From contig CAJJUK010000001.1 of assembly GCA_905195085.1 (NCBI GenBank), forward strand, positions 41,719 through 105,718: 64,000 nucleotides of DNA. The letters are read 5' to 3'. Shown here piece by piece: positions 571-59,334 of the stretch. A program made the position numbers and the translations under genes. Below the pieces are notes generated by a model, which had not been told where the DNA came from, did not search any database, and saw nothing but the letters and a program-made list of their open reading frames with translations. The stretch is from an uncultured Christensenella sp. (lineage in GTDB: Bacteria > Bacillota > Clostridia > Christensenellales > UBA1242). Position 1 is the first letter of the stretch. Every line of letters starts with the position of its first letter.

Positions 571-1206
571 TTAGTTTTGATTGTAAAAATCAAACGCTTT
601 CATGATTTCTTCCAAGTCTTCTGTTGGATTTAAAGCCTCTTCAAAATCGAAACCACTTTCACTTACGGGCAAATCTTTCAAAGTTTTTGGTTCTTTTTTG
701 ATGGTAGAAATATGGACTTCTTTTGGAGGCTCATGCCCTTTCTTATAGTCCTGCATTTTGTTAAGAAGCAGGCGCATGCTGTCATTTTCTGAGTAGATAG
801 GTTGAGTGATGACAGAAGCTTTCTCAAGTTTGTCTTTGTAATCATGAATGATGTTTGAAAATTCATAAAGCAAGTTCATAAAGTCCTGATTTTTTTTCAG
901 TTCTGGAAACTTCAATGACAGTTCTTTGAGCAACAATTCCAATTTGTCCATAATCAACTTGTAATATGTTTTTGAGCCTTCTTCTTGGAATTTTTTTGCT
1001 TTTTCAATGGCATTAAGAGCAGTCATGATGTTTTTTTCTTTGTTTTCAATTTCAAAGCGTTCATTTTTCATGTCCAAAACTTTCTTTTCAGAATCCAAAG
1101 CTTTAAGTTTTTCTTCCATGAGTTTTGCTTCATAATTTGCTTTCATTCTTTGAATGTAACTGTCTACTTCTGATTTTTTATAGCCATCAGTTTCCTGTGA
1201 AAACAT
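571..1206 (-). CDS. DivIVA-domain coiled-coil protein
   Basis: N-terminal F..ETDGYKKSEVDSYIQ is the DivIVA-type motif and the rest is heptad-rich. I prefer ATG 1206, which has GGAG 9 nt upstream and starts 2 nt after the upstream stop. The ORF-track start at 1221 has no SD. Confidence 0.7.
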   Translation of the reverse strand: MFSQETDGYKKSEVDSYIQRMKANYEAKLMEEKLKALDSEKKVLDMKNERFEIENKEKNIMTALNAIEKAKKFQEEGSKTYYKLIMDKLELLLKELSLKFPELKKNQDFMNLLYEFSNIIHDYKDKLEKASVITQPIYSENDSMRLLLNKMQDYKKGHEPPKEVHISTIKKEPKTLKDLPVSESGFDFEEALNPTEDLEEIMKAFDFYNQN

Positions 1207-1208
1207 AC

Positions 1209-1709
1209 CTACTTTCTCCATTTTTTGTCATAAAATATTTCTACAACTAATAATACCAAAAATAGAGATATAAAAGCAATAAAAATAGGCAATGTTATAA
1301 AATTTTTTACCAGCAAAAGAGCAAAAATAGTCACGAAAATTAGCGAATAAGCAAATATGAGATGAAAGTTTTGTCCGGTGAAAATGAAGGTGAAAATAGA
1401 TGCCAAAATGAATGCCAAAGAGATGAAAAATGGGGCATAATTGCGAGTTTCTGTAAACCAAAAAAGATATCCGGCAAGTCCAATAAACAGAAGTAAAAAA
1501 CCTATGTAAAGGGCGCTGTCAAGTTTAAAGAAAAAGCCTTTGACAATTTGAAACAGCCCAAGAGAGATGCAGAAATTATAGAACCAAAGGTCTGGAATTT
1601 TTAGGGAGTAAAGTGCGAAAAAGGTTGCGACAGCAAAGCATAAAAAAAGAAAAATTGCCGTTATTTTCAACAGCAGACTTTTCTTAATCCCAAACACTCT
1701 TCCTTTCAT
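1209..1709 (-). CDS. Polytopic membrane protein, unknown function
   Basis: 166-aa ORF made almost entirely of hydrophobic helices. It abuts the DivIVA-like gene. Confidence 0.6.
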   Translation of the reverse strand: MKGRVFGIKKSLLLKITAIFLFLCFAVATFFALYSLKIPDLWFYNFCISLGLFQIVKGFFFKLDSALYIGFLLLFIGLAGYLFWFTETRNYAPFFISLAFILASIFTFIFTGQNFHLIFAYSLIFVTIFALLLVKNFITLPIFIAFISLFLVLLVVEIFYDKKWRK

Positions 1710-1771: not shown

Positions 1772-2623
1772 TTAAAGGTCTGACTTCACTATTTCCATAA
1801 TTTTATCAAAACTGTCTTCACTTTTCTTTTTGGTTAAGGTGTTGTATAAGATTATTGCAAGCCCAAGAATGATGAAAATGACGCTTAATAATTGTGAAAT
1901 TCTGATTGAACCTAAATACAAACTGTCAGTTCTCAACCCTTCAATGAACATTCTTCCGATGCCATAGAGAATGAGATAATATGAAGCAACCATTCCATTT
2001 CTTTTGAAGTTAACTTTGTAGAGCAGAATCATCAAAATTGCAAAGGAAATGAAGTTCCATAAACTCTCATAGAAGAATGTTGCCAAGTGCCAGCCACTTC
2101 CACCACAGGTGCAGTCAGGTTGTGTGCAATGGTCAATGTAAACTCCAAATGGGAACCATTGCCAACTTGGATTTTCAATTGGGTAGCCATAGGCTTCTTG
2201 ATTGAAGAAGTTTCCCCAACGTCCAAGTGCTTGAGCGCAAATAAGGGCAGGGGCGATGATGTCAATCAAGGCAAAGAAGTTTTTCTTGTGGATAAGACAA
2301 TAAAGCAGGACTGCCAATGCTCCACCGATCAAACCGCCGTAGAATCCAAGCCCGCCTTCCCAAATTTTGAAGATATCCCAAAAGTTTGTGTAATATTCCA
2401 ATCTAAACAAAACATAGTAAAGTCTTGCGCCAATAATGGCAAAAGGAATGACATAGCAAGCAAGTGTCACTATATCTTCAATTTTGAAACCTCTCTTTTT
2501 TGCGACTAGACAAGTGATGACAATGCCTAAAAGATAAGAGAGGGCACTGATGATTCCGTAGAAATTCACTCTCCAACCAAACAGGTCAAAACCACTTGGT
2601 ATTGAAAGAATTATGTTGCTCAT
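1772..2623 (-). CDS. lgt: Prolipoprotein diacylglyceryl transferase
   Basis: 283-aa polytopic protein with Lgt hallmarks: GGLGFYGGLIGG and GRWGNFFNQEAYG. Confidence 0.92.
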   Translation of the reverse strand: MSNIILSIPSGFDLFGWRVNFYGIISALSYLLGIVITCLVAKKRGFKIEDIVTLACYVIPFAIIGARLYYVLFRLEYYTNFWDIFKIWEGGLGFYGGLIGGALAVLLYCLIHKKNFFALIDIIAPALICAQALGRWGNFFNQEAYGYPIENPSWQWFPFGVYIDHCTQPDCTCGGSGWHLATFFYESLWNFISFAILMILLYKVNFKRNGMVASYYLILYGIGRMFIEGLRTDSLYLGSIRISQLLSVIFIILGLAIILYNTLTKKKSEDSFDKIMEIVKSDL

Positions 2624-2699
2624 TATACCTCCAGTTGAATGGGCGAGGTTGCTCTTAAAATTATATTAATAAGTATAAAAATTTAGACATATAAAGTCA

Positions 2700-2738
2700 A
2701 ACAAAAAACAAAGCGTTCTTATGAATTCATAAAAACGC
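2700..2738 (-). terminator. Rho-independent terminator after the Rho-like gene
   Basis: The minus strand reads GCGTTTTTATGAATTCATAAGAACGC, a ~12-bp stem with one mismatch, followed by TTTGTTTTTTG. Confidence 0.6.
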
Positions 2739-2772
2739 CTATTTGCAATGACAATCGTTTGTGTGTTGAATC

Positions 2773-3969
2773 TTATAACTCAATCTTTTTTGAAACTTTG
2801 TAAACAGCTGAAACATACATTTGGTCAAACATATCTGTTTCGTCTAGGGTGGTGAAAATTGTTGTGTGTTTGTGTTCTCCACCGGCCTTGGCCAAAAGCA
2901 TGAGTTGTTTGATTATGTCAACAGCATTTTCTGTGTGTCCCATGAGAACTTTTGTGTTTGTTTTGAATGCGAAATCAATATCGTTTGCCAAGGTGGTTAT
3001 ATCCTGCACAAACAAAGCAACTCTCAAGCCTTGTTGTTGCAAACGTTTGATGTGTTCAATGACCATGAGCATCGTTTCATATACGGAGAGTGGGCGGTCA
3101 TTGTAATTAAGAACAAACAAATTGTTGAATCCCAAACTTTTGATTGCTTCTTGGTCTTCAAACATCACATTTGGAATGATTCCCAAAGTGATTATCTTGT
3201 TTTCATTGAGTTTCTTAAGCAAATTTTTGAATTTGTCAATGTTATCAATGAACTTGCCTTGTTTCAACATATATCTGCTTCCCAAAACAATTTCGTTATT
3301 CTCAAAAGCAAGTTTTTGGGTTGGAACAGTCTGTTCATATTCGTTTGTGATGTCTTGATAGTTTTGATAATTTTGGAAATTGAGATATTCAATGCTGTCA
3401 AGTATGTAATCTTTTTCCTCATTCATAATGACTGCAGTTCCGACAACATAGTCATAAGGTTTGAGTCTTGTGTCCATGTTCTTTTTAACCAAAACAAAAC
3501 CTTTTTTTTCGGAATTGTATTGGTTGTAGAAGAAAAATTCTTTTTCGTTTCTTTCGCAAAGGATTCCTTTAACTTTGATTGGAAAGAGTTTCTGTTTGAT
3601 CACATCATCTTCCATTTGTCTGAAGGTGACAACTTTTTGTAAACGATTTGTTCCTCTTTGTTGATTAGATTTCAAGGAATAGTCCTTTCCAGTGATTTGA
3701 GAAAGTTCTGCCAAAATGCCTTCAATGTTGCTGAGTTCTTTATATGGTCTGCCTTGTCTGAGAGGAATTGGTTTCAAATCTTCCCCAGAAATGATTTTGT
3801 TCATGACAATAGAGATATGGTCATTTCTCTTCAAGGTGGTAGGTGAATTGTCGCCAAAAACTCTTGCAAGTGCTCTGAGTTCATAAATTCCCAAAGACTC
3901 AATAAGTGATAAACAATCTTGTTGAGCCTTTGTCAGATTGTTAAATTCGTAAGCATTTTGTTTTGCCAT
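2773..3969 (-). CDS. Rho-like protein lacking a Walker A P-loop
   Basis: ATG 3969 has AAAGGAG 7 nt upstream. The N-terminus resembles the Rho N-terminal bundle (ELRALARVFG...). The C-terminus is collinear with the Rho RecA core (LRVALFVQDITTLAN...TTIFTTLDETDMFDQMY). No GxxxxGK[ST] motif occurs anywhere. Confidence 0.6.
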   Translation of the reverse strand: MAKQNAYEFNNLTKAQQDCLSLIESLGIYELRALARVFGDNSPTTLKRNDHISIVMNKIISGEDLKPIPLRQGRPYKELSNIEGILAELSQITGKDYSLKSNQQRGTNRLQKVVTFRQMEDDVIKQKLFPIKVKGILCERNEKEFFFYNQYNSEKKGFVLVKKNMDTRLKPYDYVVGTAVIMNEEKDYILDSIEYLNFQNYQNYQDITNEYEQTVPTQKLAFENNEIVLGSRYMLKQGKFIDNIDKFKNLLKKLNENKIITLGIIPNVMFEDQEAIKSLGFNNLFVLNYNDRPLSVYETMLMVIEHIKRLQQQGLRVALFVQDITTLANDIDFAFKTNTKVLMGHTENAVDIIKQLMLLAKAGGEHKHTTIFTTLDETDMFDQMYVSAVYKVSKKIEL

Positions 3970-4022
3970 AAATTGCTCCTTTCTCGTTTCGTAAAATTTA
4001 AAAATATTCAAAATACGTTGTT

Positions 4023-4051
4023 ATTATATCACATTTCGACACGAAATACAA
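4023..4051 (-). promoter_or_regulatory. Sigma-A-type promoter for the Rho-like gene
   Basis: The minus strand reads TTGTAT, a 17-nt spacer, then TG-a-TATAAT (extended -10). The spacer contains TGTCGAA. Confidence 0.5.
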
Positions 4052-4116
4052 ATAAAACCCAACAAAAGCAAAAAAAATTCAAAATAACAAAAATTATCAA
4101 AATTTTCAAAATTAGA

Positions 4117-4150
4117 TTGCATATCACACAAGATGTTGTGTATTATGCAA
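4117..4150. repeat. Palindromic repeat unit (family member 1)
   Basis: TTGCATATCACACAA-gatg-TTGTGTATTATGCAA has 15-nt imperfect inverted arms. It starts 1 nt beyond the SDR gene stop codon. Confidence 0.8.
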
Positions 4151-4888
4151 TTATTCGAGCACTAAACCACCATCTACATACAAGGTTTGACCGGTGATGA
4201 AAGATGCATTATCACTTGACAAAAATGCAACTGCGTTTGCAATGTCATCTGTTGTTCCAAGCCTTTTGAGAGGGGTAATTTCACAAAATTCATCTTTTTC
4301 TTCTTGTGAAAGATTGTTGTTCATTTTTGTGTCAATGAATCCAGGTGCAACGACATTTATTCTCACATCAAGATTTCCAAGTTCGCTTGCCAATGATTTA
4401 CACAAGCCGGAAAGTCCACTTTTTGTTGCTGTGTAAACACTTTCACAGGAACAGCCGTTTTTGTTGACGAAAGAACCAATCAAAACTATGCCTGCAGGGT
4501 TCTTGTTTATTGTGCGCTTTGTGAATTCTCTTATGCATCTGATTGCAGATTTGATGTTTACTTCAAACAGATTGTCGATTTCTTCATCGGACACATCAAA
4601 AATCAGTTGCCTTTTTTGGGCAACTCCTGAACAAAAAACCAAAGTATCCCAATATTTGAAGTCATGTTCCATTTCTTCAAACACCTTCTTAATTTGTGCA
4701 GGTTGGCATAAATCAAGTTTATAACTTTTGATTTCAACGTTTTTCTTGTTTTCAATTTCTTTTTCAAAATCAACTTGATTTGAGTTGTATGTAAGTGCCA
4801 AATTAAATCCTTCTTGAGCCATATGTTTTGCAGTTTCAAGTCCGATATCACTTGAAGCACCAATAATTATTGCTGTTTTCTTTATCAT
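4151..4888 (-). CDS. Short-chain dehydrogenase/reductase (FabG-like)
   Basis: GASSDIG nucleotide-binding motif, catalytic YTATK (YxxxK) and NVVAPGFIDT. Confidence 0.85.
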   Translation of the reverse strand: MIKKTAIIIGASSDIGLETAKHMAQEGFNLALTYNSNQVDFEKEIENKKNVEIKSYKLDLCQPAQIKKVFEEMEHDFKYWDTLVFCSGVAQKRQLIFDVSDEEIDNLFEVNIKSAIRCIREFTKRTINKNPAGIVLIGSFVNKNGCSCESVYTATKSGLSGLCKSLASELGNLDVRINVVAPGFIDTKMNNNLSQEEKDEFCEITPLKRLGTTDDIANAVAFLSSDNASFITGQTLYVDGGLVLE

Positions 4889-16032: not shown

Positions 16033-16938
16033 ATGTTAGAGAAAATCTTGCCTGATAAGTTCTACAAAATCTTGTCCGAAAAAGTGAATTTGAAAGCGGT
16101 TAATGAAATCAGACTTCGTGCAGACAAGCCGGTTGTGATCAATGTCAGCGGAAAGATGTATTTCTTATCCGAAAATGGTGTGACTGGCAATGTGAACAAC
16201 AGTCTTTATGCCAGCAAGATTATGATTGAAGATGTCATTTTCAGGGCAAGCGAATGTTCCATCTACTCCGTCAATGAACAGATAAAAAAGGGGTTTATTG
16301 TCACAGATGATGCTGTCAGAATTGGTATTGGTGGAAATTTGATTGAAGAGAACGGACACATAAAAACAATGACAAACTTTTGCAGTTGCAACATCAGAGT
16401 TCCACACGTCGTGAAAAATTGCAGTTTGACAGCCTATCCATTTATGGTTTCTGAAAGTGGAGTGGCAAACACCTTGGTCATTTCTCCGCCAGCTTGTGGA
16501 AAGACGACATTTTTGCGTGATTTTGTCTATCAACTCAGTGAACGTAATCTTCCATATAACATTCTTCTACTGGACGAGAGAGGGGAACTTGATTGCGGAA
16601 TAAACTCAAAGTTTACTGACAAGATTGCATTCGCAACAAAAAAAGTTGGATTTGAAAATGGCATTAGGTCGCTGTCACCAGACATTATTGTGACGGACGA
16701 AATCGGACAGGAAGAGGACATTGAAGCAATCAGATATGCAAGTTCTTGCGGGGTTAAAGTTTTGGCATCAACGCACGCTGACAACATGGAAACTTTTTGC
16801 AAAAAAGGACTTTTTCAAACGCTAATCAAAGAAAAGGTTTTCAAAAGATATGTTCTTCTTTCAAAGCGAAATGGTCCAGGGACTTTTGAGGGAATTTATG
16901 ACGAGAACTTCTCAAGAGTTTTCAGCAATTTCAAATGA
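16033..16938 (+). CDS. spoIIIAA: Stage III sporulation protein AA (ATPase)
   Basis: Walker A SPPACGKTTFLRD and Walker B IIVTDEIG. It is the first gene of an 8-gene spoIIIA-ordered cluster. Confidence 0.92.
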   Translation: MLEKILPDKFYKILSEKVNLKAVNEIRLRADKPVVINVSGKMYFLSENGVTGNVNNSLYASKIMIEDVIFRASECSIYSVNEQIKKGFIVTDDAVRIGIGGNLIEENGHIKTMTNFCSCNIRVPHVVKNCSLTAYPFMVSESGVANTLVISPPACGKTTFLRDFVYQLSERNLPYNILLLDERGELDCGINSKFTDKIAFATKKVGFENGIRSLSPDIIVTDEIGQEEDIEAIRYASSCGVKVLASTHADNMETFCKKGLFQTLIKEKVFKRYVLLSKRNGPGTFEGIYDENFSRVFSNFK

Positions 16939-17711: not shown

Positions 17712-18104
17712 ATGGACACAATTTTCAAAATTATAGGCATTGCACTTATCACTTGTGTAACTTGTCTGATAATCAAACCTGTTCGGCCAGATTTTGCGAT
17801 TTTCATTTCTATTGTTGGCGGAATTATCATCATCTTTTTTCTGCTTTCATATCTTTCAGGAATTTTTGACATTTTCAACAACATCTTTGAAATTTCTGGA
17901 GTCAATGGTTCGCTTTATGGAGTGATTTTCAAAATTATTGGTGTTGGATATTTGACAGAGTTTACGGCGAGCATTTGCAGTGACACGGGGAATAACAGCC
18001 TTGGAGATAAAGTGCTTTTGGGAGGGAAAATTATCATACTTGTCATGGCTCTTCCTATTGTGACAAGTATTTTGGACATTGTCATGGAATTGTTGCCACA
18101 ATGA
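17712..18104 (+). CDS. spoIIIAD: Stage III sporulation protein AD
   Basis: MDTIFKIIGIALITCV... with 4 TM helices. AGGAGGG SD. Operon position fits. Confidence 0.88.
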   Translation: MDTIFKIIGIALITCVTCLIIKPVRPDFAIFISIVGGIIIIFFLLSYLSGIFDIFNNIFEISGVNGSLYGVIFKIIGVGYLTEFTASICSDTGNNSLGDKVLLGGKIIILVMALPIVTSILDIVMELLPQ

Positions 18105-19384
18105 TGAAGAGAAGATTGTTTCGTCCGCCAAAAAGGAAGAGCAGGCGGAGAAAATTTTATCCAATTTTTGTTGTCTTATTGATTTTTGTTTCTTGTTTTT
18201 ATGGCAGATTTGACGTTGTGACTGGTTTTGAAAGAAACAACGGAATTGCTTATGCAACTTCTTCAGTCGAGGCTGAAAGCACGGAAGAGTTGGAAGAAAT
18301 GCTTCAAGAAGAAATTGATAAACAAATTGGCAACCTTGATTTCTCTGGCATTGAAGACATAATTTCAAAATTGAGCACCGATGCAAAAAATCTTTTTAAT
18401 TCCAATTCATTTGTTGAGAAAGTAAGTTATGTCATATCTGGTGAATATGCCGAAAATTCTGAAAATTTCTTTTCTGCAGTCCTTTCAATCTTCTGGCAGG
18501 GTTTGAAAGATTATCTTCCAATCATCGGAAGCATAATATCCATTTCCATTTTGGGTGGCATGGTTTCCAACTTGAAACCTAACACAAATGGAAAATCTGT
18601 TGGAAACATCATTCACTTTGTCACTTATGGTGTTGTCATCATTTTCCTTGGAGTTTCACTTGTGGAAATCATCAAAGTGACAACCACAACACTTACATCA
18701 GTGAAAAATATGTTTGATGGGATTTTCCCAATTTTGCTGACACTGTTGACAGCTGTTGGCGGAACAGTCTCGGTGGGAATTTATCAGCCAGCAATTGCAC
18801 TTCTGAGCAATGTTTTCATTTCTCTTATCACATATATCTTTCTTCCGCTTTTCATTTTTTCTATGGTTTTCTCAATTGTCGGAAATCTCTCAAACAACAT
18901 AAAACTGGACAAATTTGTTTCTTTTTTGCAAGGGGCGTTCAAGTGGACAATTGGTCTTTGTTTTACGATTTTTCTTGGGTTTGTGAGCATTCAAGGAATC
19001 ATGGCAGGGGCTGTTGACGGGCTTTCAATAAGGACAGCGAAATATGCAATCAAGAGTTATATTCCTGTTGTCGGCGGATATGTCTCTGACGGACTTTCCA
19101 TCATCATGGCAAGCAGTATGTTGATTAAAAATGCGGTTGGTGGTGTTGGACTTTTCTTACTTTTTTCCAGTGTGATTTCGCCAGTCATTAACCTTGCAAT
19201 CTTCATTCTTTCGCTGAAGTTTATGGCTGGAATAATTGAACCAATAGGCGACAAAAAGACGGCAAATTTCATAAGCGACATATCCAAAAGTTTGTCACTT
19301 CTTGTTGCGCTTCTTGTTGCAGTTTCGTTCATGTATTTGGTTATGACCGGGCTGATTATGTGCAGTGCCAATTTGGTGATTTAA
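18101..19384 (+). CDS. spoIIIAE: Stage III sporulation protein AE
   Basis: 427-aa polytopic membrane protein at the AE position. Confidence 0.88.
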   Translation: MMKRRLFRPPKRKSRRRKFYPIFVVLLIFVSCFYGRFDVVTGFERNNGIAYATSSVEAESTEELEEMLQEEIDKQIGNLDFSGIEDIISKLSTDAKNLFNSNSFVEKVSYVISGEYAENSENFFSAVLSIFWQGLKDYLPIIGSIISISILGGMVSNLKPNTNGKSVGNIIHFVTYGVVIIFLGVSLVEIIKVTTTTLTSVKNMFDGIFPILLTLLTAVGGTVSVGIYQPAIALLSNVFISLITYIFLPLFIFSMVFSIVGNLSNNIKLDKFVSFLQGAFKWTIGLCFTIFLGFVSIQGIMAGAVDGLSIRTAKYAIKSYIPVVGGYVSDGLSIIMASSMLIKNAVGGVGLFLLFSSVISPVINLAIFILSLKFMAGIIEPIGDKKTANFISDISKSLSLLVALLVAVSFMYLVMTGLIMCSANLVI

Positions 19385-35526: not shown

Positions 35527-36147
35527 ATGAAAGTCAAAGATCAAATCTTTTATCAAATTGCAACCAATAGAGATTTTAAAGTAGGGGACAAACTCCATTT
35601 TGGAGATGAGATTAATGGACAATCCAGGATTTTTGATTTTTCATACACATTAGATGGAAAACCATTGCATGAACTTGCTTTCAAAGATTCGAAAAAACGA
35701 ATGTTCAGAGACAGAAATCTGACTTTTGAAACAGCAAAGGCTCTCTCAAACTATGATTTATTTATGAGAGAAATCGCTCTTGAAGAAGTCAGAAAAGAAA
35801 AGTTTCCCAATTTACCTTCTCGCTTTTTCTGTATGTATCTATCAGAACACAAAGAAGATATGATGGAAAACTTTAATAAATATAAGAAATACACATCATC
35901 AAAGTCAAAAAATTTTGCAGTAAGAAATCAGGGCGACTCATATCAAGCTGTCGCTGTGAAAGTGACCGGAGAAGCCTTCTTTTGTAAGGGCGTAGGGATA
36001 AGTCGAGAAGGTCTTTCATTTAATGATTATAAAAAACGAGCAGTTGAGTATTGGTCACAATCACAAACATCAAATGAAAAAACAAAAGAAATTCTGTTTG
36101 TTGGTGACGCAGAGGTTGTTGAAATTTTTGATGAAATTAGGCCATAA
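35527..36147 (+). CDS. Hypothetical protein (206 aa)
   Basis: Clean ORF starting 13 nt after tgt, with GAGG upstream. I cannot place it in a family. Confidence 0.55.
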   Translation: MKVKDQIFYQIATNRDFKVGDKLHFGDEINGQSRIFDFSYTLDGKPLHELAFKDSKKRMFRDRNLTFETAKALSNYDLFMREIALEEVRKEKFPNLPSRFFCMYLSEHKEDMMENFNKYKKYTSSKSKNFAVRNQGDSYQAVAVKVTGEAFFCKGVGISREGLSFNDYKKRAVEYWSQSQTSNEKTKEILFVGDAEVVEIFDEIRP

Positions 36148-36401: not shown

Positions 36402-36851
36402 TTATTCTTCTTCAACAGATTCAACAGAAACTTCAGCTTTTTTCTTAGTTTTTCTTATTTCCGCTTTTGTTTCTTTTTCTTTTTTCTTGTAATAATCTTC
36501 TATTGCAGCTCTTATGGATTCTTCAGCCAAAATTGCACAATAAACTTTTTGAGATGGAAGTTCTCCTAAAATTTTAATAATGTCTTTGTTTGAAACTTTC
36601 AAAGCATCATCTATTGATTTTCCTTTAACTAAATCACAAGCGATATCAGAAGAAGCAATCGCTGCGCAACATCCAAATGTTTTGAATTTTGCATTTTCAA
36701 TCATTCCGTTATCATCGATTTTTAAATACATTTTGATGATATCACCACAAGTTGTGGAACTTCCAACCTGCCCAATTGCATTTGCTCCATGCATACCACC
36801 AGCATTACGAGGGTTTTGAAATCTATCTAAAACAGTTTTTGTGTACATCAT
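36402..36851 (-). CDS. nifU: Fe-S cluster scaffold NifU/IscU-like
   Basis: DRFQNPRNAGG, CGD and FGCCAAIASS. GGGAGGA lies 8 nt upstream of ATG 36851. Confidence 0.92.
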   Translation of the reverse strand: MMYTKTVLDRFQNPRNAGGMHGANAIGQVGSSTTCGDIIKMYLKIDDNGMIENAKFKTFGCCAAIASSDIACDLVKGKSIDDALKVSNKDIIKILGELPSQKVYCAILAEESIRAAIEDYYKKKEKETKAEIRKTKKKAEVSVESVEEE

Positions 36852-36853
36852 AA

Positions 36854-38029
36854 TCAAATCCTCCCTGCTTGAATTGGCGAAATTGCCCTAAGCTTTGTTA
36901 CAACTTTTTCTATTTCATCAACGACATAATCAACATCTGACTTTGATATGTTTGTTCCAAATGAAATTCTAATTGACCCTTGTGCAATTTCATCTGGTAT
37001 TCCCATTGCTTTCAAAACATGAGAAGGCAAAAGTGATTTTGACGTGCAAGCTGAAGATGTTGAAACTGCAATCCCTGCAAGGTCAAGAAGCATCAAAATT
37101 GATTCTCCTTCAATGCCGTAGAATGATATGTTCAAAATTGCATTTGATTTTTGATGAGGATGTCCATTAACTTGGAAAAATTGAACTTTCTCAGACAATT
37201 TTTCAAGGAAATATTCTCTGATCATTTTGAGTTTCTTGTTGTTTATAATATAGTTCTTTGTTGCAATTTCGATTGCTTTTCCAAATCCAGCAATTCCTGC
37301 AACATTTTCTGTTCCGGCTCTTTTTCCTCGTTCTTGGTTGTTTCCACCAAAAGTTATTGGATCAATTCTGACACCATTTTTAACATATAATGCGCCAACG
37401 CCCTTTGGTCCGTGGATTTTGTGAGAAGACATTGACATCAAATCGATTTCCATGTCTTGAACGTCCATTTTGATGTTGCCAATTGCCTGAACAGCATCAG
37501 TATGGAAAATGATTCCATAATCATGAGCAATCTTTGCAATTGCCTTGATGTTTTGAATTGTTCCAACTTCATTGTTTACTGACATAATTGAAATCAAAGT
37601 TGTATCTTTTCTTATTGCATGCAAAAGTTCTGGAAGTTTAACAAGTCCCGTGCTGTCAACTGGCAAATAAGTCACTTCAAATCCTTCTTTTTCCAATTGT
37701 TCGCACGCATGCAAAACAGCATGATGTTCAATTTGACTTGTTATGATGTGTTTTCCCTTCTTTTCATAAGCATGAGCAACACCAATGATTGCCCAGTTGT
37801 CAGCTTCAGTTCCACCACTTGTGAAGTAGATTTCATTGGCCTTACTTGCGTTTATTGCCTCTTTGACTCTGTCTCTCGCTCTGTCTACAATTGCCATGGC
37901 GTCACGACCAAAACTATGAAGAGAACCAGCGTTGCCATAGATTGTATTGAAACAAGGCAACATTTCACTTAAAACCTCATTAGAAACAAAAGTTGTTGAA
38001 GCGTTATCCAAATAAATTTTTCTTTCCAT
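36854..38029 (-). CDS. nifS: Cysteine desulfurase NifS
   Basis: PLP-lysine motif SSHKIHGPKGVG and the catalytic SSACTS loop. Confidence 0.94.
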   Translation of the reverse strand: MERKIYLDNASTTFVSNEVLSEMLPCFNTIYGNAGSLHSFGRDAMAIVDRARDRVKEAINASKANEIYFTSGGTEADNWAIIGVAHAYEKKGKHIITSQIEHHAVLHACEQLEKEGFEVTYLPVDSTGLVKLPELLHAIRKDTTLISIMSVNNEVGTIQNIKAIAKIAHDYGIIFHTDAVQAIGNIKMDVQDMEIDLMSMSSHKIHGPKGVGALYVKNGVRIDPITFGGNNQERGKRAGTENVAGIAGFGKAIEIATKNYIINNKKLKMIREYFLEKLSEKVQFFQVNGHPHQKSNAILNISFYGIEGESILMLLDLAGIAVSTSSACTSKSLLPSHVLKAMGIPDEIAQGSIRISFGTNISKSDVDYVVDEIEKVVTKLRAISPIQAGRI

Positions 38030-54223: not shown

Positions 54224-55267
54224 ATGAGTAAATTGTCTTATTATGAAAAAAGAGATTTGTTAAATATGCAGAGAATTGGAAACTATCTTTCCACTTTGCC
54301 TGAATATTGCTATGATTTCTTCACGGGAATTGAAAACAACACTTCCAGCCTAACCCGTGTGAACTATGCCATGGATTTGTGTGTCTTTTTTGATTATTTG
54401 GAAAAATATGTCTTCAGAAAACCAAAGATTCAAATCACTCTTGATGACTTAAATCAAATTCAATCAAGAAACATAGAAAATTTTCTCTCATATTTGTCTT
54501 TCTATCAAAACGATGAGAACAAGATGATTAAAAACACAGAAAAGGGAAAAGCCAGAAAACTTGCAAGCATCAGAAGTTTTTTCAAATATCTTTTCAATCA
54601 TGATTTGATAAAGGCCAATGTTGCCAGCAAAGTTGAGACTCCAAAACTTCACAACAAAGAAATCATAAGACTTGAACAAGACGAAGTTGAGCGTATGCTT
54701 GATGCCGTTCAATCACCAACAACCTTCACAGAAAGACAAAAACATTACAACAAAAACACCCAAGAGCGAGATAACGCCATTGTCACCTTATTCCTTGGAA
54801 CTGGCATAAGAATCTCCGAGCTTGTTGGTCTCAATGTTGAGGACTTTGATTTTTCTCAAAATGCTTTCAAAGTGACAAGAAAAGGTGGAAATCAGACCAT
54901 TTTATATTTCTCTCGAGAAGTTGCCGAAGCCCTGCAGGAATGGCTCAGAAAAAGAGAAACACTCAAACTCAACGAAGATGAAAACGCCATGTTTGTCTCC
55001 CTTCAAAACAAAAGAATCTGTGTTCGTGCAGTGGAAAATCTTGTCAAAAAGTTTGCAAAAGAGGGAAGTCCTTTGAAAAAAATCTCTCCACACAAACTTC
55101 GTTCCACTTTTGGCACAAATTTGTATAGAGAAACAAAAGACATCTACATTGTCGCCGATGTGTTGGGACATAAAGATGTCAACACAACCAGAAAACACTA
55201 CGCAGCAATCAGTGAAGATATGAGAAAGTCTGTCGCAAACGTAGTCAAAATTCATAATGATGATTAA
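54224..55267 (+). CDS. Tyrosine site-specific recombinase (XerC/XerD/XerS-like)
   Basis: C-terminal catalytic residues fit: GTGIRISEL (Arg), HKLRSTF (H-x-x-R) and LGHKDVNTTRKHY (His...Tyr). The N-terminal SAM-like domain is present. ATG 54266 is an alternative start. Confidence 0.88.
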   Translation: MSKLSYYEKRDLLNMQRIGNYLSTLPEYCYDFFTGIENNTSSLTRVNYAMDLCVFFDYLEKYVFRKPKIQITLDDLNQIQSRNIENFLSYLSFYQNDENKMIKNTEKGKARKLASIRSFFKYLFNHDLIKANVASKVETPKLHNKEIIRLEQDEVERMLDAVQSPTTFTERQKHYNKNTQERDNAIVTLFLGTGIRISELVGLNVEDFDFSQNAFKVTRKGGNQTILYFSREVAEALQEWLRKRETLKLNEDENAMFVSLQNKRICVRAVENLVKKFAKEGSPLKKISPHKLRSTFGTNLYRETKDIYIVADVLGHKDVNTTRKHYAAISEDMRKSVANVVKIHNDD

Positions 55268-55347: not shown

Positions 55348-56523
55348 TTACACCATCCAATCAACATAGACACCATAACCCTTTGTTGGGTCATTTAAAA
55401 ACACGTGCGTCACAGCACCAACAATTTTCCCGTCTTGAATGATTGGAGAACCACTCATACCCTGGACAATCCCCCCTGTCATTTCAAGCAGACGCTTGTC
55501 TTTAACTCTGAAAACAAGGCTTTTGTCATCGGCAGACTTTTGATAGTTTGCTTTTATTATCTCAATTTCATATTCTTCTCTGATTCCACTGATGCTTGAA
55601 GCAATGTAGGCTTTTCCCATTTTCACACCCAGTCGTCCACCAAGTTTTGCAGTGACATTCTCGTCAACAAGCCCCTTAACATCACTCAAAACACCATTAA
55701 TACCAAATTTGGAATTGTTTTCAATCGTTCCCTTGCTTTTGGAATTTGAAACAAAAACACATCTCAGTTCTCCTGGAGCATTTCTTTTTCCTTTGTTTAT
55801 ACCGATCAAATTGCATTCATAAATGTTGCCATTTGCCACAGGCACAACATTCCCACTATTTGCTTCGACAATCGGATGCCCCAAAGCTCCATATTCCTTG
55901 GTTTTCTTGTTGACAAATGTCAAAGTTCCAACTCCAGTTATGTCGTCTTTGACCCACAAACCTAGTTTAAGTTTTCCAGAATTTTCATCTCTAGTGGTTT
56001 TTATCAGAGTCTTGAGCTCCTTGTTTTTCCTTAGAAACTTAACTTCCGCTTCTTCTCCGCTTTCCTGCAAAATATCCTCAATTTGGCTTAAACTTTCAAT
56101 CTCTTGTCCGTTAATCTGCGTGATAATGTCTCCCTCTTTCAAAGAAGTTACAATGTCATTTTCTTCACTGACAACAATTGCTCCGTCAGAGCATATAGAA
56201 AGTCCAATCGGAACCCCACCAACATAATATTCATCATCGCTTGCCAAGACAACATCAACTTTTTTAATTGGAATGAATCCAAACAGTTTGAATACCACTT
56301 CTCCCTGTTTGACTTTTTGTCCACCAACAATCTTTTCTTTTTCCTTCAATTCAGCCTTGAAAAAGTCGCCAAACGTCTTATTTTCATTGACCGACTCAAT
56401 GTCGTTTAATTCAACCAAAAAACCATTTTCCAAACTCATAATTTCCTGCAATGGAAAATATATAGAACAGCAAAGAAAAACAATTAAAAACAAAGAGAAA
56501 AATGTAATAGAATATTTTTTCAT
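55348..56523 (-). CDS. spoIVB: SpoIVB sporulation signalling peptidase (S55)
   Basis: Signal anchor, PDZ domain and the S55 core GVGTLTFVNKKTKEYGALGHPI...GMSGSPI. Confidence 0.92.
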   Translation of the reverse strand: MKKYSITFFSLFLIVFLCCSIYFPLQEIMSLENGFLVELNDIESVNENKTFGDFFKAELKEKEKIVGGQKVKQGEVVFKLFGFIPIKKVDVVLASDDEYYVGGVPIGLSICSDGAIVVSEENDIVTSLKEGDIITQINGQEIESLSQIEDILQESGEEAEVKFLRKNKELKTLIKTTRDENSGKLKLGLWVKDDITGVGTLTFVNKKTKEYGALGHPIVEANSGNVVPVANGNIYECNLIGINKGKRNAPGELRCVFVSNSKSKGTIENNSKFGINGVLSDVKGLVDENVTAKLGGRLGVKMGKAYIASSISGIREEYEIEIIKANYQKSADDKSLVFRVKDKRLLEMTGGIVQGMSGSPIIQDGKIVGAVTHVFLNDPTKGYGVYVDWMV

Positions 56524-57462: not shown

Positions 57463-59334
57463 ATGGCATTTAATTCAAATGGTCAAATTCAATTTTTGGT
57501 ATTAGACAGCCTTTCACATGGTTCCAAATATGGTTTGGAAATCATAGAATTTATCTCTCAAAGAACTGGCGGAAATTATATAATGAAAAAGCCAACCCTT
57601 TATTCATGTTTGACAAGAATGGAAAAGAAAGGTTTGGTTTCATCTTCATATTGGGGAGAAAGCGAATTTGGTGGCAAAAGACACTACTACACCATAACAA
57701 ATGAAGGTAAGAAAGTTTTGGAACAACTTGCTCCAGAATTTGAAGGTATGCAATTCAACACAGAAAAAGAAACCAGCGAAGAGACAAGCTCTAATTTAAG
57801 CGACAACGCTGTTTCAAGTGGATATAACTCAACCGATCAAGAAACCACGAAAGAAGACAAGCCTATCTTTTTGCAACAAGACAGCATTTTTAATATGGTT
57901 AAGAACGAAGAAAACAAAAACTCACAAACAATAAGCGCCCAACAAACCAATGAGGACGATGGGGTTGTTGAAAATCAAATGGATTTCTTCTCATATCAAC
58001 CTGAACAAACTGAAACTGTTGAAAATGAGAACGAAACTTTCTCATTTAACAACTCTGCCGAAAACAACGACACACAAAAAGACTCAAATTCGGCAGAAGA
58101 ATTTAATGAAAACACTCAAGATCAAGATTATGAAAAAATTCAATATTATCAAAACATCCTTGAAACCAATTCCTATCCACAGCAACCAGAGACAGAAGAG
58201 ATAAAGGACGATGCAAAACTCTTGGATGAAGACGAAAAATTGACCCTTACCCCTTTCCAAGAAGAACAAAACAGAAGATTGTATGACACTTCAAGCGAAC
58301 TCAAGAAATATAGAAAGAAAAAATCTTTCTCTGAAAACCAGATTGAAATGTCTGTTGTTTATGAAAATGCTGAAGATAGAGAAATTCAAAAAGCAAGAAT
58401 CGAACAACTTAAACAGTCAATGTTGAATGCAAGACAAAACGGATTTGACAACATTCAGCAACCTGCAACATTTGGACAATCACAAACAAACGAAAATGCA
58501 TCACAAACCGGCATTGACAGTGGTTTTTCTTATAAGAAAGAAGAAATCTCAGAAGATGTTGTGAGTGGAGAAGAAGAACGCAAAGATGACGCCATTTTCA
58601 TCACAAACCCAAGAATTGACGAAAGCCAAATTCCAATTCAAAAGAAGATTACCCCACCAAACATCGAAGTTAACATCTATGATGACAATTTGCCTGCACC
58701 AAAGCGTGACAGCAATTTGGAACCTACCTACAAAGACATGATGGCAAAACTCTTTGAACGTAAAAAAGAGAAAAAACAAGCTGAATACATTCCACAAACT
58801 GAAGAAAGTCAAAACTATTCAGATATGGAAAGTTTTGCAGACTATGGAACTTTGAAAAAGTACTATTCTGGACACGGCATTGATTTCAAGGAATATAAGA
58901 AAACATCAGTCGAAAGAAATCACAACACCAACCTGCTCAAATTCATAAATTCTGCGATATTGCTTCTTTTGGCTGGCGTTGGTTGTGGAGTGCTTTATGG
59001 AATTTTGAGCGCGGTAGGTTTGACTAAAGCAGAGACCAATTTCATGTATTACACCCTGCCTATTCTCTTCCTTGTATATTTCATTTACACATTGATTGTT
59101 TACAAAGTTTCAATAAGCAAAAAAGCAGTATTAATTTACAACAGCATAATAAACTGGGCAGTTTTTGTATTGGCATCAATCGTTGTTTTGGTAATCAACA
59201 TCATTTGTGGAATGCAATATGAAACAATGGGAGAATTCTTAACCACCCTCCTGGTGCCAATCTTAGGACTTTTGATTGCATTTCCTGTCAATTACTACAT
59301 CAAGAAATTTATTTATAAAAAATTTGCTAAATAA
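57463..59334 (+). CDS. Membrane-tethered PadR-family winged-helix protein with long low-complexity linker
   Basis: aa 1-95 form a PadR wHTH (GSKYGLEIIEFI...KPTLYSCLTRMEKKGLVSS...HYYTITNEGKKVL). ~380 aa of E/N/Q/T/D-rich linker follow. The C-terminal ~130 aa carry 4 hydrophobic helices. Confidence 0.75.
   Translation: MAFNSNGQIQFLVLDSLSHGSKYGLEIIEFISQRTGGNYIMKKPTLYSCLTRMEKKGLVSSSYWGESEFGGKRHYYTITNEGKKVLEQLAPEFEGMQFNTEKETSEETSSNLSDNAVSSGYNSTDQETTKEDKPIFLQQDSIFNMVKNEENKNSQTISAQQTNEDDGVVENQMDFFSYQPEQTETVENENETFSFNNSAENNDTQKDSNSAEEFNENTQDQDYEKIQYYQNILETNSYPQQPETEEIKDDAKLLDEDEKLTLTPFQEEQNRRLYDTSSELKKYRKKKSFSENQIEMSVVYENAEDREIQKARIEQLKQSMLNARQNGFDNIQQPATFGQSQTNENASQTGIDSGFSYKKEEISEDVVSGEEERKDDAIFITNPRIDESQIPIQKKITPPNIEVNIYDDNLPAPKRDSNLEPTYKDMMAKLFERKKEKKQAEYIPQTEESQNYSDMESFADYGTLKKYYSGHGIDFKEYKKTSVERNHNTNLLKFINSAILLLLAGVGCGVLYGILSAVGLTKAETNFMYYTLPILFLVYFIYTLIVYKVSISKKAVLIYNSIINWAVFVLASIVVLVINIICGMQYETMGEFLTTLLVPILGLLIAFPVNYYIKKFIYKKFAK

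Follow-up and report, generated by a model that had tools for sequence, protein, structure and literature searches.

A probable ATPase-dead derivative of the transcription terminator Rho maintained in uncultured Clostridia

A gene at the start of a 64,000-nucleotide stretch of the genome of an uncultured Christensenella sp. (contig CAJJUK010000001.1; the whole stretch is referred to below as the window) encodes a Rho-like protein that is homologous to Rho along its whole length and has lost the residues of the ATP motor. We consider it very probable that this protein is an ATPase-dead Rho derivative maintained by selection. The profile searches described below place it in a large, previously unnamed Rho-derived superfamily in uncultured Clostridia, and no description of an ATPase-dead Rho-like family was found in the literature searched. 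Rho is regarded as a near-universal ATP-driven terminator, and its presence or absence defines which lineages are called Rho-dependent.

Homology to Rho and loss of the ATP motor

The relationship to Rho is barely visible when the protein is searched alone. The Pfam search of the single sequence returned zero matches, and NCBIfam returned three marginal ones of 14.6 bits each, two to Rho models and one to pdxJ. The Rho models are NF006886, the Rho equivalog, with a cutoff of 315 bits, and NF041509 (paralog_Rho2), with a cutoff of 628, so the protein lies below curated Rho membership and below the family threshold of the second model as well; TIGR00767 (Rho) was not among the NCBIfam matches reported. 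A single-sequence search of the PDB gave a kinase at an E value of 0.43, which was rejected as spurious, and a family profile was needed to reach Rho.

That profile is built on an alignment of 40 sequences from the family of the window protein (alignment A1). When it is searched against the PDB, 11 of the 12 matched sequences are Rho (E ~1e-3), and profile positions 224-372 pair with Rho 171-322, from the GRGQRG strand ahead of Walker A to the strand ahead of the R-loop. The AlphaFold2 model of the protein has a mean predicted local distance difference test score (pLDDT) of 84.8, exceeding 90 in the C-terminal domain, and a Foldseek search of the PDB with this model places Rho at all of the top 50 positions (E 3.7e-16 to 6e-12). 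These structures come from E. coli, M. tuberculosis, T. thermophilus and T. maritima, and many of the alignments run to about 400 columns. The same search against viral structures gives generic P-loop-fold matches only (E >= 9e-5). Profile-profile comparison (hhalign) with an alignment of canonical Clostridial Rho (A3) pairs residues 22-375 with Rho 10-377 over 344 columns, at 97.65% probability and an E value of 2.6e-12. Finally, a transitive link is seen through four relatives, P0207, P0226, P0250 and P0255, which the family profile matches at E 3e-16 to 1e-11 and which themselves match the NCBIfam Rho equivalog at 123-180 bits; P0207, P0250, P0255 and a protein from the P0226 cluster also match E. 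coli Rho by tblastn (1e-20 to 1e-31). Segment 171-322 of the E. coli Rho query agrees with the PDB alignment, and database Rho sequences give the same conclusions. Since the PDB profile match, Foldseek and hhalign concur, the protein is established as homologous to Rho along its entire length. The collinearity with Rho that the original prediction had read from the sequence alone is thus upheld, far beyond chance, by three comparisons.

The domains that had been proposed, an N-terminal Rho helix bundle, an oligonucleotide-binding (OB)-like middle segment and a RecA-like core, were all recovered, with the extents given in Table 1. The bundle is formed by helices between residues 14 and 61 of the model, it is matched by hhalign to the Rho N-terminus, and relatives of the protein match Pfam Rho_N, supporting the assignment. 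The OB fold, with strands between residues 131 and 196, is found in agreement by Foldseek and hhalign, it aligns to Rho G53, G94-D95 and N120, and relatives match Pfam Rho_RNA_bind. For the RecA-like core, the PDB profile match, Foldseek and hhalign all point to Rho. Between the bundle and the OB fold lies a GRPxK motif of AT-hook-like character. As sequence pattern alone, the AT-hook is present as LRQGRPYK in the window protein and as K/R-GRP-x-K in relatives, within an unstructured linker. In a set of 130 superfamily sequences, made up of 124 representatives with 340 residues or more, the window protein and five family members, the G and R of this motif are conserved at 100%, the P at 96% and the K at 95%. 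The connector between the OB fold and the RecA-like core appears to tolerate large insertions, because the family member P0110 carries a low-complexity insert of ~65 residues there, rich in A, E, N and K (...AENKAGAENG...), at A1 columns ~237-305.

The motor is lost at almost every site that can be aligned. The protein contains no GK[ST] anywhere, and all of the 40 aligned family members (40/40) lack a P-loop where Walker A should lie; such GK[ST] tripeptides as the family has, few in number, are found at non-homologous positions. This agrees with the absence of a P-loop reported in the original prediction. A P-loop reached through another frame or start is ruled out by the continuous frame, the collinear homologues and the unconserved loop that occupies the Walker A place in the model. 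The segment of Rho that holds the catalytic Glu and the Arg valve, DE211R212PEE, aligns as IPNVMFED, with E211 replaced by V268, R212 by M269, and the equivalent of E214 alone kept. Walker B, LLD265S in Rho, aligns as FVQ322-D323; the D265 column holds Q or E, with a near-invariant Asp at the next position. Where Rho has its Q-loop (TLSGGxD), the family carries a conserved motif of its own, with the local sequence K(V)LMGHTE, in which H345 is invariant in 40 sequences, and the R-loop DTGSKMD aligns as LDETDMFD, the lysine being gone. The protein reaches only to about residue 346-350 of E. coli Rho and therefore lacks ~70 residues, including the Arg finger R366 and the C-terminal subdomain; the shortening by about 70 residues had been anticipated correctly. 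The whole family shares the loss of Walker A, of the catalytic Glu, of both the Q-loop and the R-loop, and of the ~70 C-terminal residues that include the Arg finger. Because Walker A, the catalytic Glu, the Arg valve, the Q-/R-loop residues, the Arg finger and the C-terminus are all lost, the protein is predicted to be incapable of working as an ATP-driven RNA translocase, and the earlier description of it as ATPase-dead applies well beyond the P-loop.

The protein nevertheless shows the marks of a maintained gene. Compared with the orthologue at locus L002, the ratio of nonsynonymous to synonymous substitution rates (dN/dS) is 0.044 overall, at a dS of 0.48, which is unsaturated. By region, the ratio is 0.010 in the N-terminal 100 residues, 0.024 in the OB fold and 0.068 in the RecA-like domain. 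These values indicate strong purifying selection in every domain, the catalytically dead RecA-like part included, which its dN/dS of 0.068 shows to be maintained by selection.

Family, descent and relation to known Rho proteins

The family of the window protein comprises ~160 homologue clusters at 90% identity, full-length at 390-400 residues and all without Pfam domains, which come from uncultured Clostridia such as 'Candidatus Caccovivens'. The NCBI names for these proteins are 'hypothetical protein' or 'Rho termination factor N-terminal domain-containing protein'. Mapping of the distribution found orthologues at 58 loci in species-representative genomes, intact and full-length. An exhaustive profile search of 1.84 billion representatives extends the family to a superfamily of 391 clusters at 50% identity (E<=1e-3), with lengths of 350-470 residues. 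Its signature is an N-terminal LGIxELRxLARxxGVxSPTTxKRxELI, followed by GRPxK, the OB fold and a RecA-like core that mostly has no P-loop, in proteins whose length this definition sets at 360-470 residues. Searches of the window protein against PHROGs and PADLOC gave no matches, and because both are empty and the viral Foldseek matches are only generic, we see no phage or defence affiliation.

The longer members of the superfamily stand closer to Rho. They match the NCBIfam Rho equivalog at 74-180 bits, under its cutoff, and several match Pfam Rho_N, Rho_RNA_bind and ATP-synt_ab. Walker A (GxKxSGK[ST]) is kept at the Rho position in 2 of 147 superfamily representatives, P0226 and P0255, both of ~460 residues. 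Alignment of the motifs reveals a graded decay of the motor in three stages: forms in which the P-loop is present and the catalytic Glu is gone; forms of ~440-470 residues in which the C-terminus is kept and the P-loop is gone; and forms of 360-400 residues that are cut right after the last core strand, among which the window family falls.

The nearest relatives found in a search with P0207 are canonical Clostridial Rho, and 22 of the 119 so recovered carry the same N-terminal signature together with an RRGRPPK motif. An example is P0366, named 'transcription termination factor Rho [Christensenellales bacterium]'. In Rho of this type SPPKAGKT, DERPEEV, MDSLTRLAR, the Q- and R-loops and SGTRRE are all intact. 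The window protein has in common with canonical Christensenellales and Clostridial Rho the order of domains, the signature GIxELRxIARxxGVxSPT..K+..LI and the RRGRPPK-type motif, and the OB fold and RecA-like core align over the 344 columns given above. The canonical proteins (for example P0366 and P0347) have their N-terminal bundle and OB fold separated by an insertion. They differ in that they are 480-590 residues long with all ATPase motifs, whereas the window protein has none of these and is ~70 residues shorter at its end, and in their locus, which is prs-Lactamase_B_3-rho as against RhoL-lgt in the window family (RhoL being the Rho-like gene). Because a fully motif-intact Rho shares the signature and RRGRPPK, the N-terminal module is concluded to be inherited from a bona fide Rho of the clade, and the superfamily descends from a Christensenellales-type canonical Rho in which this bundle and the RRGRPPK motif are present. 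The dead forms group as a single clade inside canonical GRPxK-type Rho when a neighbour-joining tree is drawn; P0207 branches at its base, followed by the long and then the short forms, and the window family is at the tip. The AT-hook-like RRGRPPK of canonical Clostridial Rho lies in its N-terminal insertion, and we found no discussion of it in the literature searched.

Earlier work bears on such proteins from several sides. A 2026 metagenome study notes that there are both Rho-positive and Rho-negative Clostridia and that divergent Rho homologues may escape detection (PMC13613805). It also covers proteins that have the Rho_N domain only, namely plant RHON1 and the cyanobacterial DUF4912 'Rho-like' family (PMC13613805). 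These resemble the window protein in reusing the Rho N-terminal helix bundle outside a working motor, and differ from it in having neither the OB fold nor the RecA-like domain, both of which the window protein has. A 2024 survey of Rho diversity reports 'Rho-like' sequences without a recognisable Rho ATPase domain in 421 species, a class defined there through Pfam/HMM (hidden Markov model) matches (PMC11347177). As a concept, Rho-derived proteins without a recognisable ATPase domain describe the window protein too; it appears to be set apart from the surveyed class, however, in being silent in Pfam and keeping the full RecA-like fold. Because the class is defined by Pfam and the window protein has no Pfam match, a survey so described would miss it.

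NF041509 (paralog_Rho2, the 'short form') is likewise a shortened Rho relative that NCBI names apart from the main Rho equivalog, but the window protein, at the score and cutoff given above, is not a member. We take this short form to be the Group B or Type 4 Rho of the 2024 survey, which lacks the N-terminal domain and keeps the ATPase, the opposite of what is seen here. A further parallel comes from the rotary ATPases. F1 alpha and the V1/A1 B subunit are non-catalytic subunits of the same ATPase superfamily, and Rho and F1 alpha/beta share Pfam ATP-synt_ab. By analogy, these too are homologues of a RecA-like ring ATPase in which catalysis is lost and the protein is kept as a structural or regulatory subunit. 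The window protein differs in having no C-terminal domain, and a hetero-hexamer is in its case an analogy only.

Candidate functions and the rho locus

The mechanism that we propose starts from the near-invariant N-terminal module, which may still bind the ligand of the N-terminal domain of the clade's canonical Rho; the putative ligand is single-stranded RNA, or else RNA polymerase together with its partners. From the dead RecA-like domain we would expect only the part of a folded scaffold for oligomerisation or interaction. Such a protein would be a static, ATP-independent binder that modulates transcription termination or RNA fate, either by occupying Rho loading sites or, given a coexisting canonical Rho, by forming inactive mixed rings. 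This specific mechanism of modulating termination is offered tentatively, and we would sooner expect it to be wrong than right. Taken as a whole, with the much firmer identification of the protein as a dead Rho derivative blended in, the explanation is one that we favor with moderate confidence.

Several observations weigh against it. The RNP1-like GFGFLR (ribonucleoprotein motif 1) of the Rho primary binding site is unconserved in the family; aromatics are common at the positions of Rho F64 and Y80, where the alignment is approximate, and the rest of the motif is lost. Loss of the C-terminal subdomain may block ring formation. The GRPxK motif and the helix-extended-helix bundle would fit binding of double-stranded AT-rich DNA equally well, and the single clade of dead forms in the neighbour-joining tree could be a long-branch artefact. 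Finally, the neighbours of the gene (lgt, a membrane protein and a DivIVA-like protein) hint at no role in transcription. Nearly all of the 58 loci, those of relatives only 25-27% identical among them, preserve the order RhoL-lgt-membrane protein-DivIVA-like protein, and a role tied to these cell-envelope or division neighbours is one alternative to consider.

Other alternatives turn on whether a canonical rho exists beside the Rho-like gene. None is found in the 64-kb window, where tblastn with E. coli Rho finds the Rho-like gene alone, and none appears in the 10 kb on either side of the gene at the 58 related loci, which at 58 x 21 kb cover a few percent of each genome. The rho-locus markers rpmE (B. 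subtilis sequence), prs and Lactamase_B_3 are also absent from the window and these loci. In related Clostridia the locus of canonical GRPxK-type rho is constant, (DUF1846)-prs-Lactamase_B_3-rho in L071-L075, with a variant in L068 that has a 154-residue gene in place of Lactamase_B_3. Immediately ahead of the ATPase-dead P0207 is a Lactamase_B_3 gene with 53% identity to the one preceding canonical rho, and P0207 looks like an in-situ decay of the resident rho, that is, a decayed orthologue rather than a paralogue. Since a dead form, in the case of P0207, occupies the canonical rho locus, the window protein could be either an orthologue or a paralogue. The P-loop-retaining forms and some of the long forms sit elsewhere, after veg-sipL-spoIIR-sleB-ypeB.

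If the window protein is a true paralogue, it could be a non-catalytic partner or poison subunit that co-assembles with canonical Rho or competes with it for loading sites, lowering Rho-dependent termination, for example during sporulation. The clade-specific N-terminal module is the same as that of canonical Rho in related Clostridia and the RecA-like fold is kept, both of which suit such a role, and the locus upstream of lgt differs from DUF1846-prs-Lactamase_B_3-rho, as expected for a duplicate. ATPase-defective Rho mutants are, moreover, dominant negative in E. coli. However, within the coverage stated above neither the window nor the related loci revealed a canonical rho, co-assembly is doubtful because the C-terminal interface region is missing, and P0207 shows that the resident gene of a rho locus may itself be a dead form. 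We regard such a partner or poison subunit as less likely than not.

The protein could instead be the sole surviving rho descendant in a lineage without Rho-dependent termination, reused as an ATP-independent nucleic-acid binder, for example as a nucleoid-associated protein or a binder of AT-rich DNA that relies on the helix-extended-helix bundle and the AT-hook-like GRPxK motif, or as an RNA chaperone. The best conserved feature of the superfamily, GRPxK in a disordered basic linker, argues for this, as do the AT-rich genome (~35% GC), the graded decay with one in-situ example in P0207, and the fact that Clostridia comprise both Rho-positive and Rho-negative species (PMC13613805; PMC11347177). 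The motif need not signal a new ligand, however, since fully functional canonical Rho, an RNA-binding protein, has it as well, and the locus of the window gene is unlike that of canonical rho. This reading, too, seems to us unlikely, though worth keeping in view.

Two further explanations fare worse. An NTPase (nucleoside triphosphatase) with a non-canonical nucleotide site could draw on the confidently predicted RecA-like fold and the invariant D323, D332, H345, D379 and D382, but the P-loop position is unconserved even inside the family, neither the catalytic Glu nor the Arg finger remains, and a RecA-fold NTPase that functions with no P-loop is not known to us; we hold it to be very improbable. 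That the gene is a decaying relic or pseudogene, or its likeness to Rho due to chance, would suit the Pfam silence and the single-sequence NCBIfam Rho score of only 14.6 bits, but it is refuted by a dN/dS of 0.04 at a dS of 0.48, by the intact full-length orthologues at 58 species-representative loci, and by structure and profile matches (Foldseek and hhalign) that are exclusive to Rho, and we give it next to no credence.

The identification of a selected, ATPase-dead Rho derivative has consequences for how Rho is surveyed. Beside Rho-present and Rho-absent, the family represents a third state, a conserved Rho-derived pseudo-enzyme that is invisible to Pfam and NCBIfam and is widespread in uncultured Clostridia of the human and animal gut. 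It offers natural intermediates for the loss of the motor by a hexameric helicase, and with the N-terminal module isolated from the motor it could reveal the module's own role and that of the clade-specific GRPxK insertion. In the broadest picture, which we put forward only as a doubtful possibility, a radiation of gut Clostridia has long kept a motor-less Rho protein under selection, in the window lineage maybe as the only Rho descendant, and uses it, free of ATP, as a static terminator, an anti-terminator, or a nucleoid- or RNA-binding ring or scaffold that draws on the Rho N-terminal module and the AT-hook-like motif. If this is so, surveys would score such bacteria as 'Rho-negative' despite a retained Rho-derived factor, and the family would capture the stepwise loss or repurposing of Rho, from P-loop present to P-loop lost to C-terminus lost. 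If canonical Rho coexists, the protein would be a candidate for an endogenous Rho regulator that is itself derived from Rho.

The gene, its surroundings and the rest of the window

The features of the gene and its downstream neighbours are collected in Table 1. The product had been given as 399 residues; the reading frame in fact encodes 398 followed by the stop. The identical protein is present on 8 public contigs.

Table 1. Features of the Rho-like gene, its product and the adjacent genes (window positions)
Feature	Position	Strand	Residues	Details and basis
Rho-like protein, coding sequence	2773..3969	-	1-398	398 aa + stop, ATG at 3969; open reading frame list and sequence
Rho_N-type three-helix bundle	3787..3936	-	12-61	LIESLGIYELRALARVFGDNSPTTLKRNDHISIVMNKII; AlphaFold helices 14-24, 28-37, 48-61; hhalign to Rho N-terminus
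GRPxK (AT-hook-like) motif	3739..3756	-	72-77	QGRPYK; disordered linker, pLDDT <50 at residues 68-78
OB fold, Rho RNA-binding (cold-shock-domain-like) domain	3370..3585	-	129-200	beta strands 131-196 (model)
RecA-like core without catalytic motifs	2776..3315	-	219-398	hmmsearch against PDB Rho, Foldseek, motif alignment; pLDDT >90
Walker A replacement loop	3241..3264	-	236-243	KQGKFIDN (Rho PPKAGKT); alignments; columns unconserved in family
Family-specific motif MGHT(E) at Rho Q-loop position	2932..2943	-	343-346	Rho TLSGGxD; alignment
Ribosome-binding site	3976..3984	-		AGAAAGGAG; GGAG 3979-3976; 6 nt 5' of ATG
Putative sigma-A promoter	4023..4051	-		-35 TTGTAT 4051-4046, 17-nt spacer with TG, -10 TATAAT 4028-4023; read from sequence
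Intrinsic terminator	2701..2740	-		13-bp stem, 4-nt loop, T-run (2740..2711); 33 nt past stop; terminator scan
lgt	1772-2623	-		conserved downstream neighbour of Rho-like gene
166-aa multi-pass membrane protein	1209-1709	-		downstream neighbour; no Pfam or PHROGs match
216-aa coiled-coil protein, DivIVA-like N-terminus	571-1221	-		F..ETDGY.K.EVD.YI; no Pfam or PHROGs match

The gene had also been credited with its own extended -10 promoter and its own terminator, and a putative promoter of this kind and a terminator are both present. The extended -10, TGATATAAT at 4031-4023 on the minus strand, was read directly from the sequence and is perfect, while the -35 is weak, with 3/6 matches to the consensus; because of the latter, the promoter is absent from the list produced by a simple consensus promoter scan. 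The hairpin and T-run in Table 1 are the sole terminator-like site that the terminator scan finds within 2500-4300, and the 86-nt stretch that holds them has a predicted RNA fold of -20.3 kcal/mol (z = -3.66 vs shuffles). The promoter scan places a promoter-like site of lgt at 2700-2672. Given its own putative promoter, its own terminator and then this promoter-like site of lgt, the Rho-like gene looks monocistronic.

Among the relatives of the Rho-like gene, some also adjoin spoIIR, sleB, ypeB or sigF genes. Beside the distant Rho-like genes at three loci lie giant open reading frames of 2488-2804 residues that are free of Pfam matches (L059 11469-18935, L063 11576-19342 and L065 12539-20953). 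In L059 and L065 the giant frame is followed by a gene for a TraG/VirD4-type coupling protein, and these three neighbourhoods may be a mobile or surface-protein region.

Elsewhere in the window, a gene for SpoIIIAA (16033-16938) and one for SpoIIIAE (18101-19384) lie in an apparent spoIIIA operon (16033-~21400), and a SpoIVB peptidase gene is found at 55348-56523. Because of these genes, the host is probably an endospore former, even though it is an uncultured Clostridium of the gut. At ~36000, between 35527-36147 (+) and 36402-38029 (-), the GC skew flips from positive to negative and the orientation of the genes flips from mostly plus to mostly minus at the same point, as would be expected of a replication terminus. 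The gene at 54224-55267 (+) codes for a tyrosine recombinase of the phage-integrase/XerC-D type; it lies on the strand opposite to its neighbours, between trigger factor/clpP/clpX and spoIVB. Finally, the gene at 57463-59334 (+) encodes a 623-residue protein in which Pfam recognises only a PadR DNA-binding domain (residues 13-87); with ~530 further residues that are unassigned, it is unusually long for a PadR regulator.

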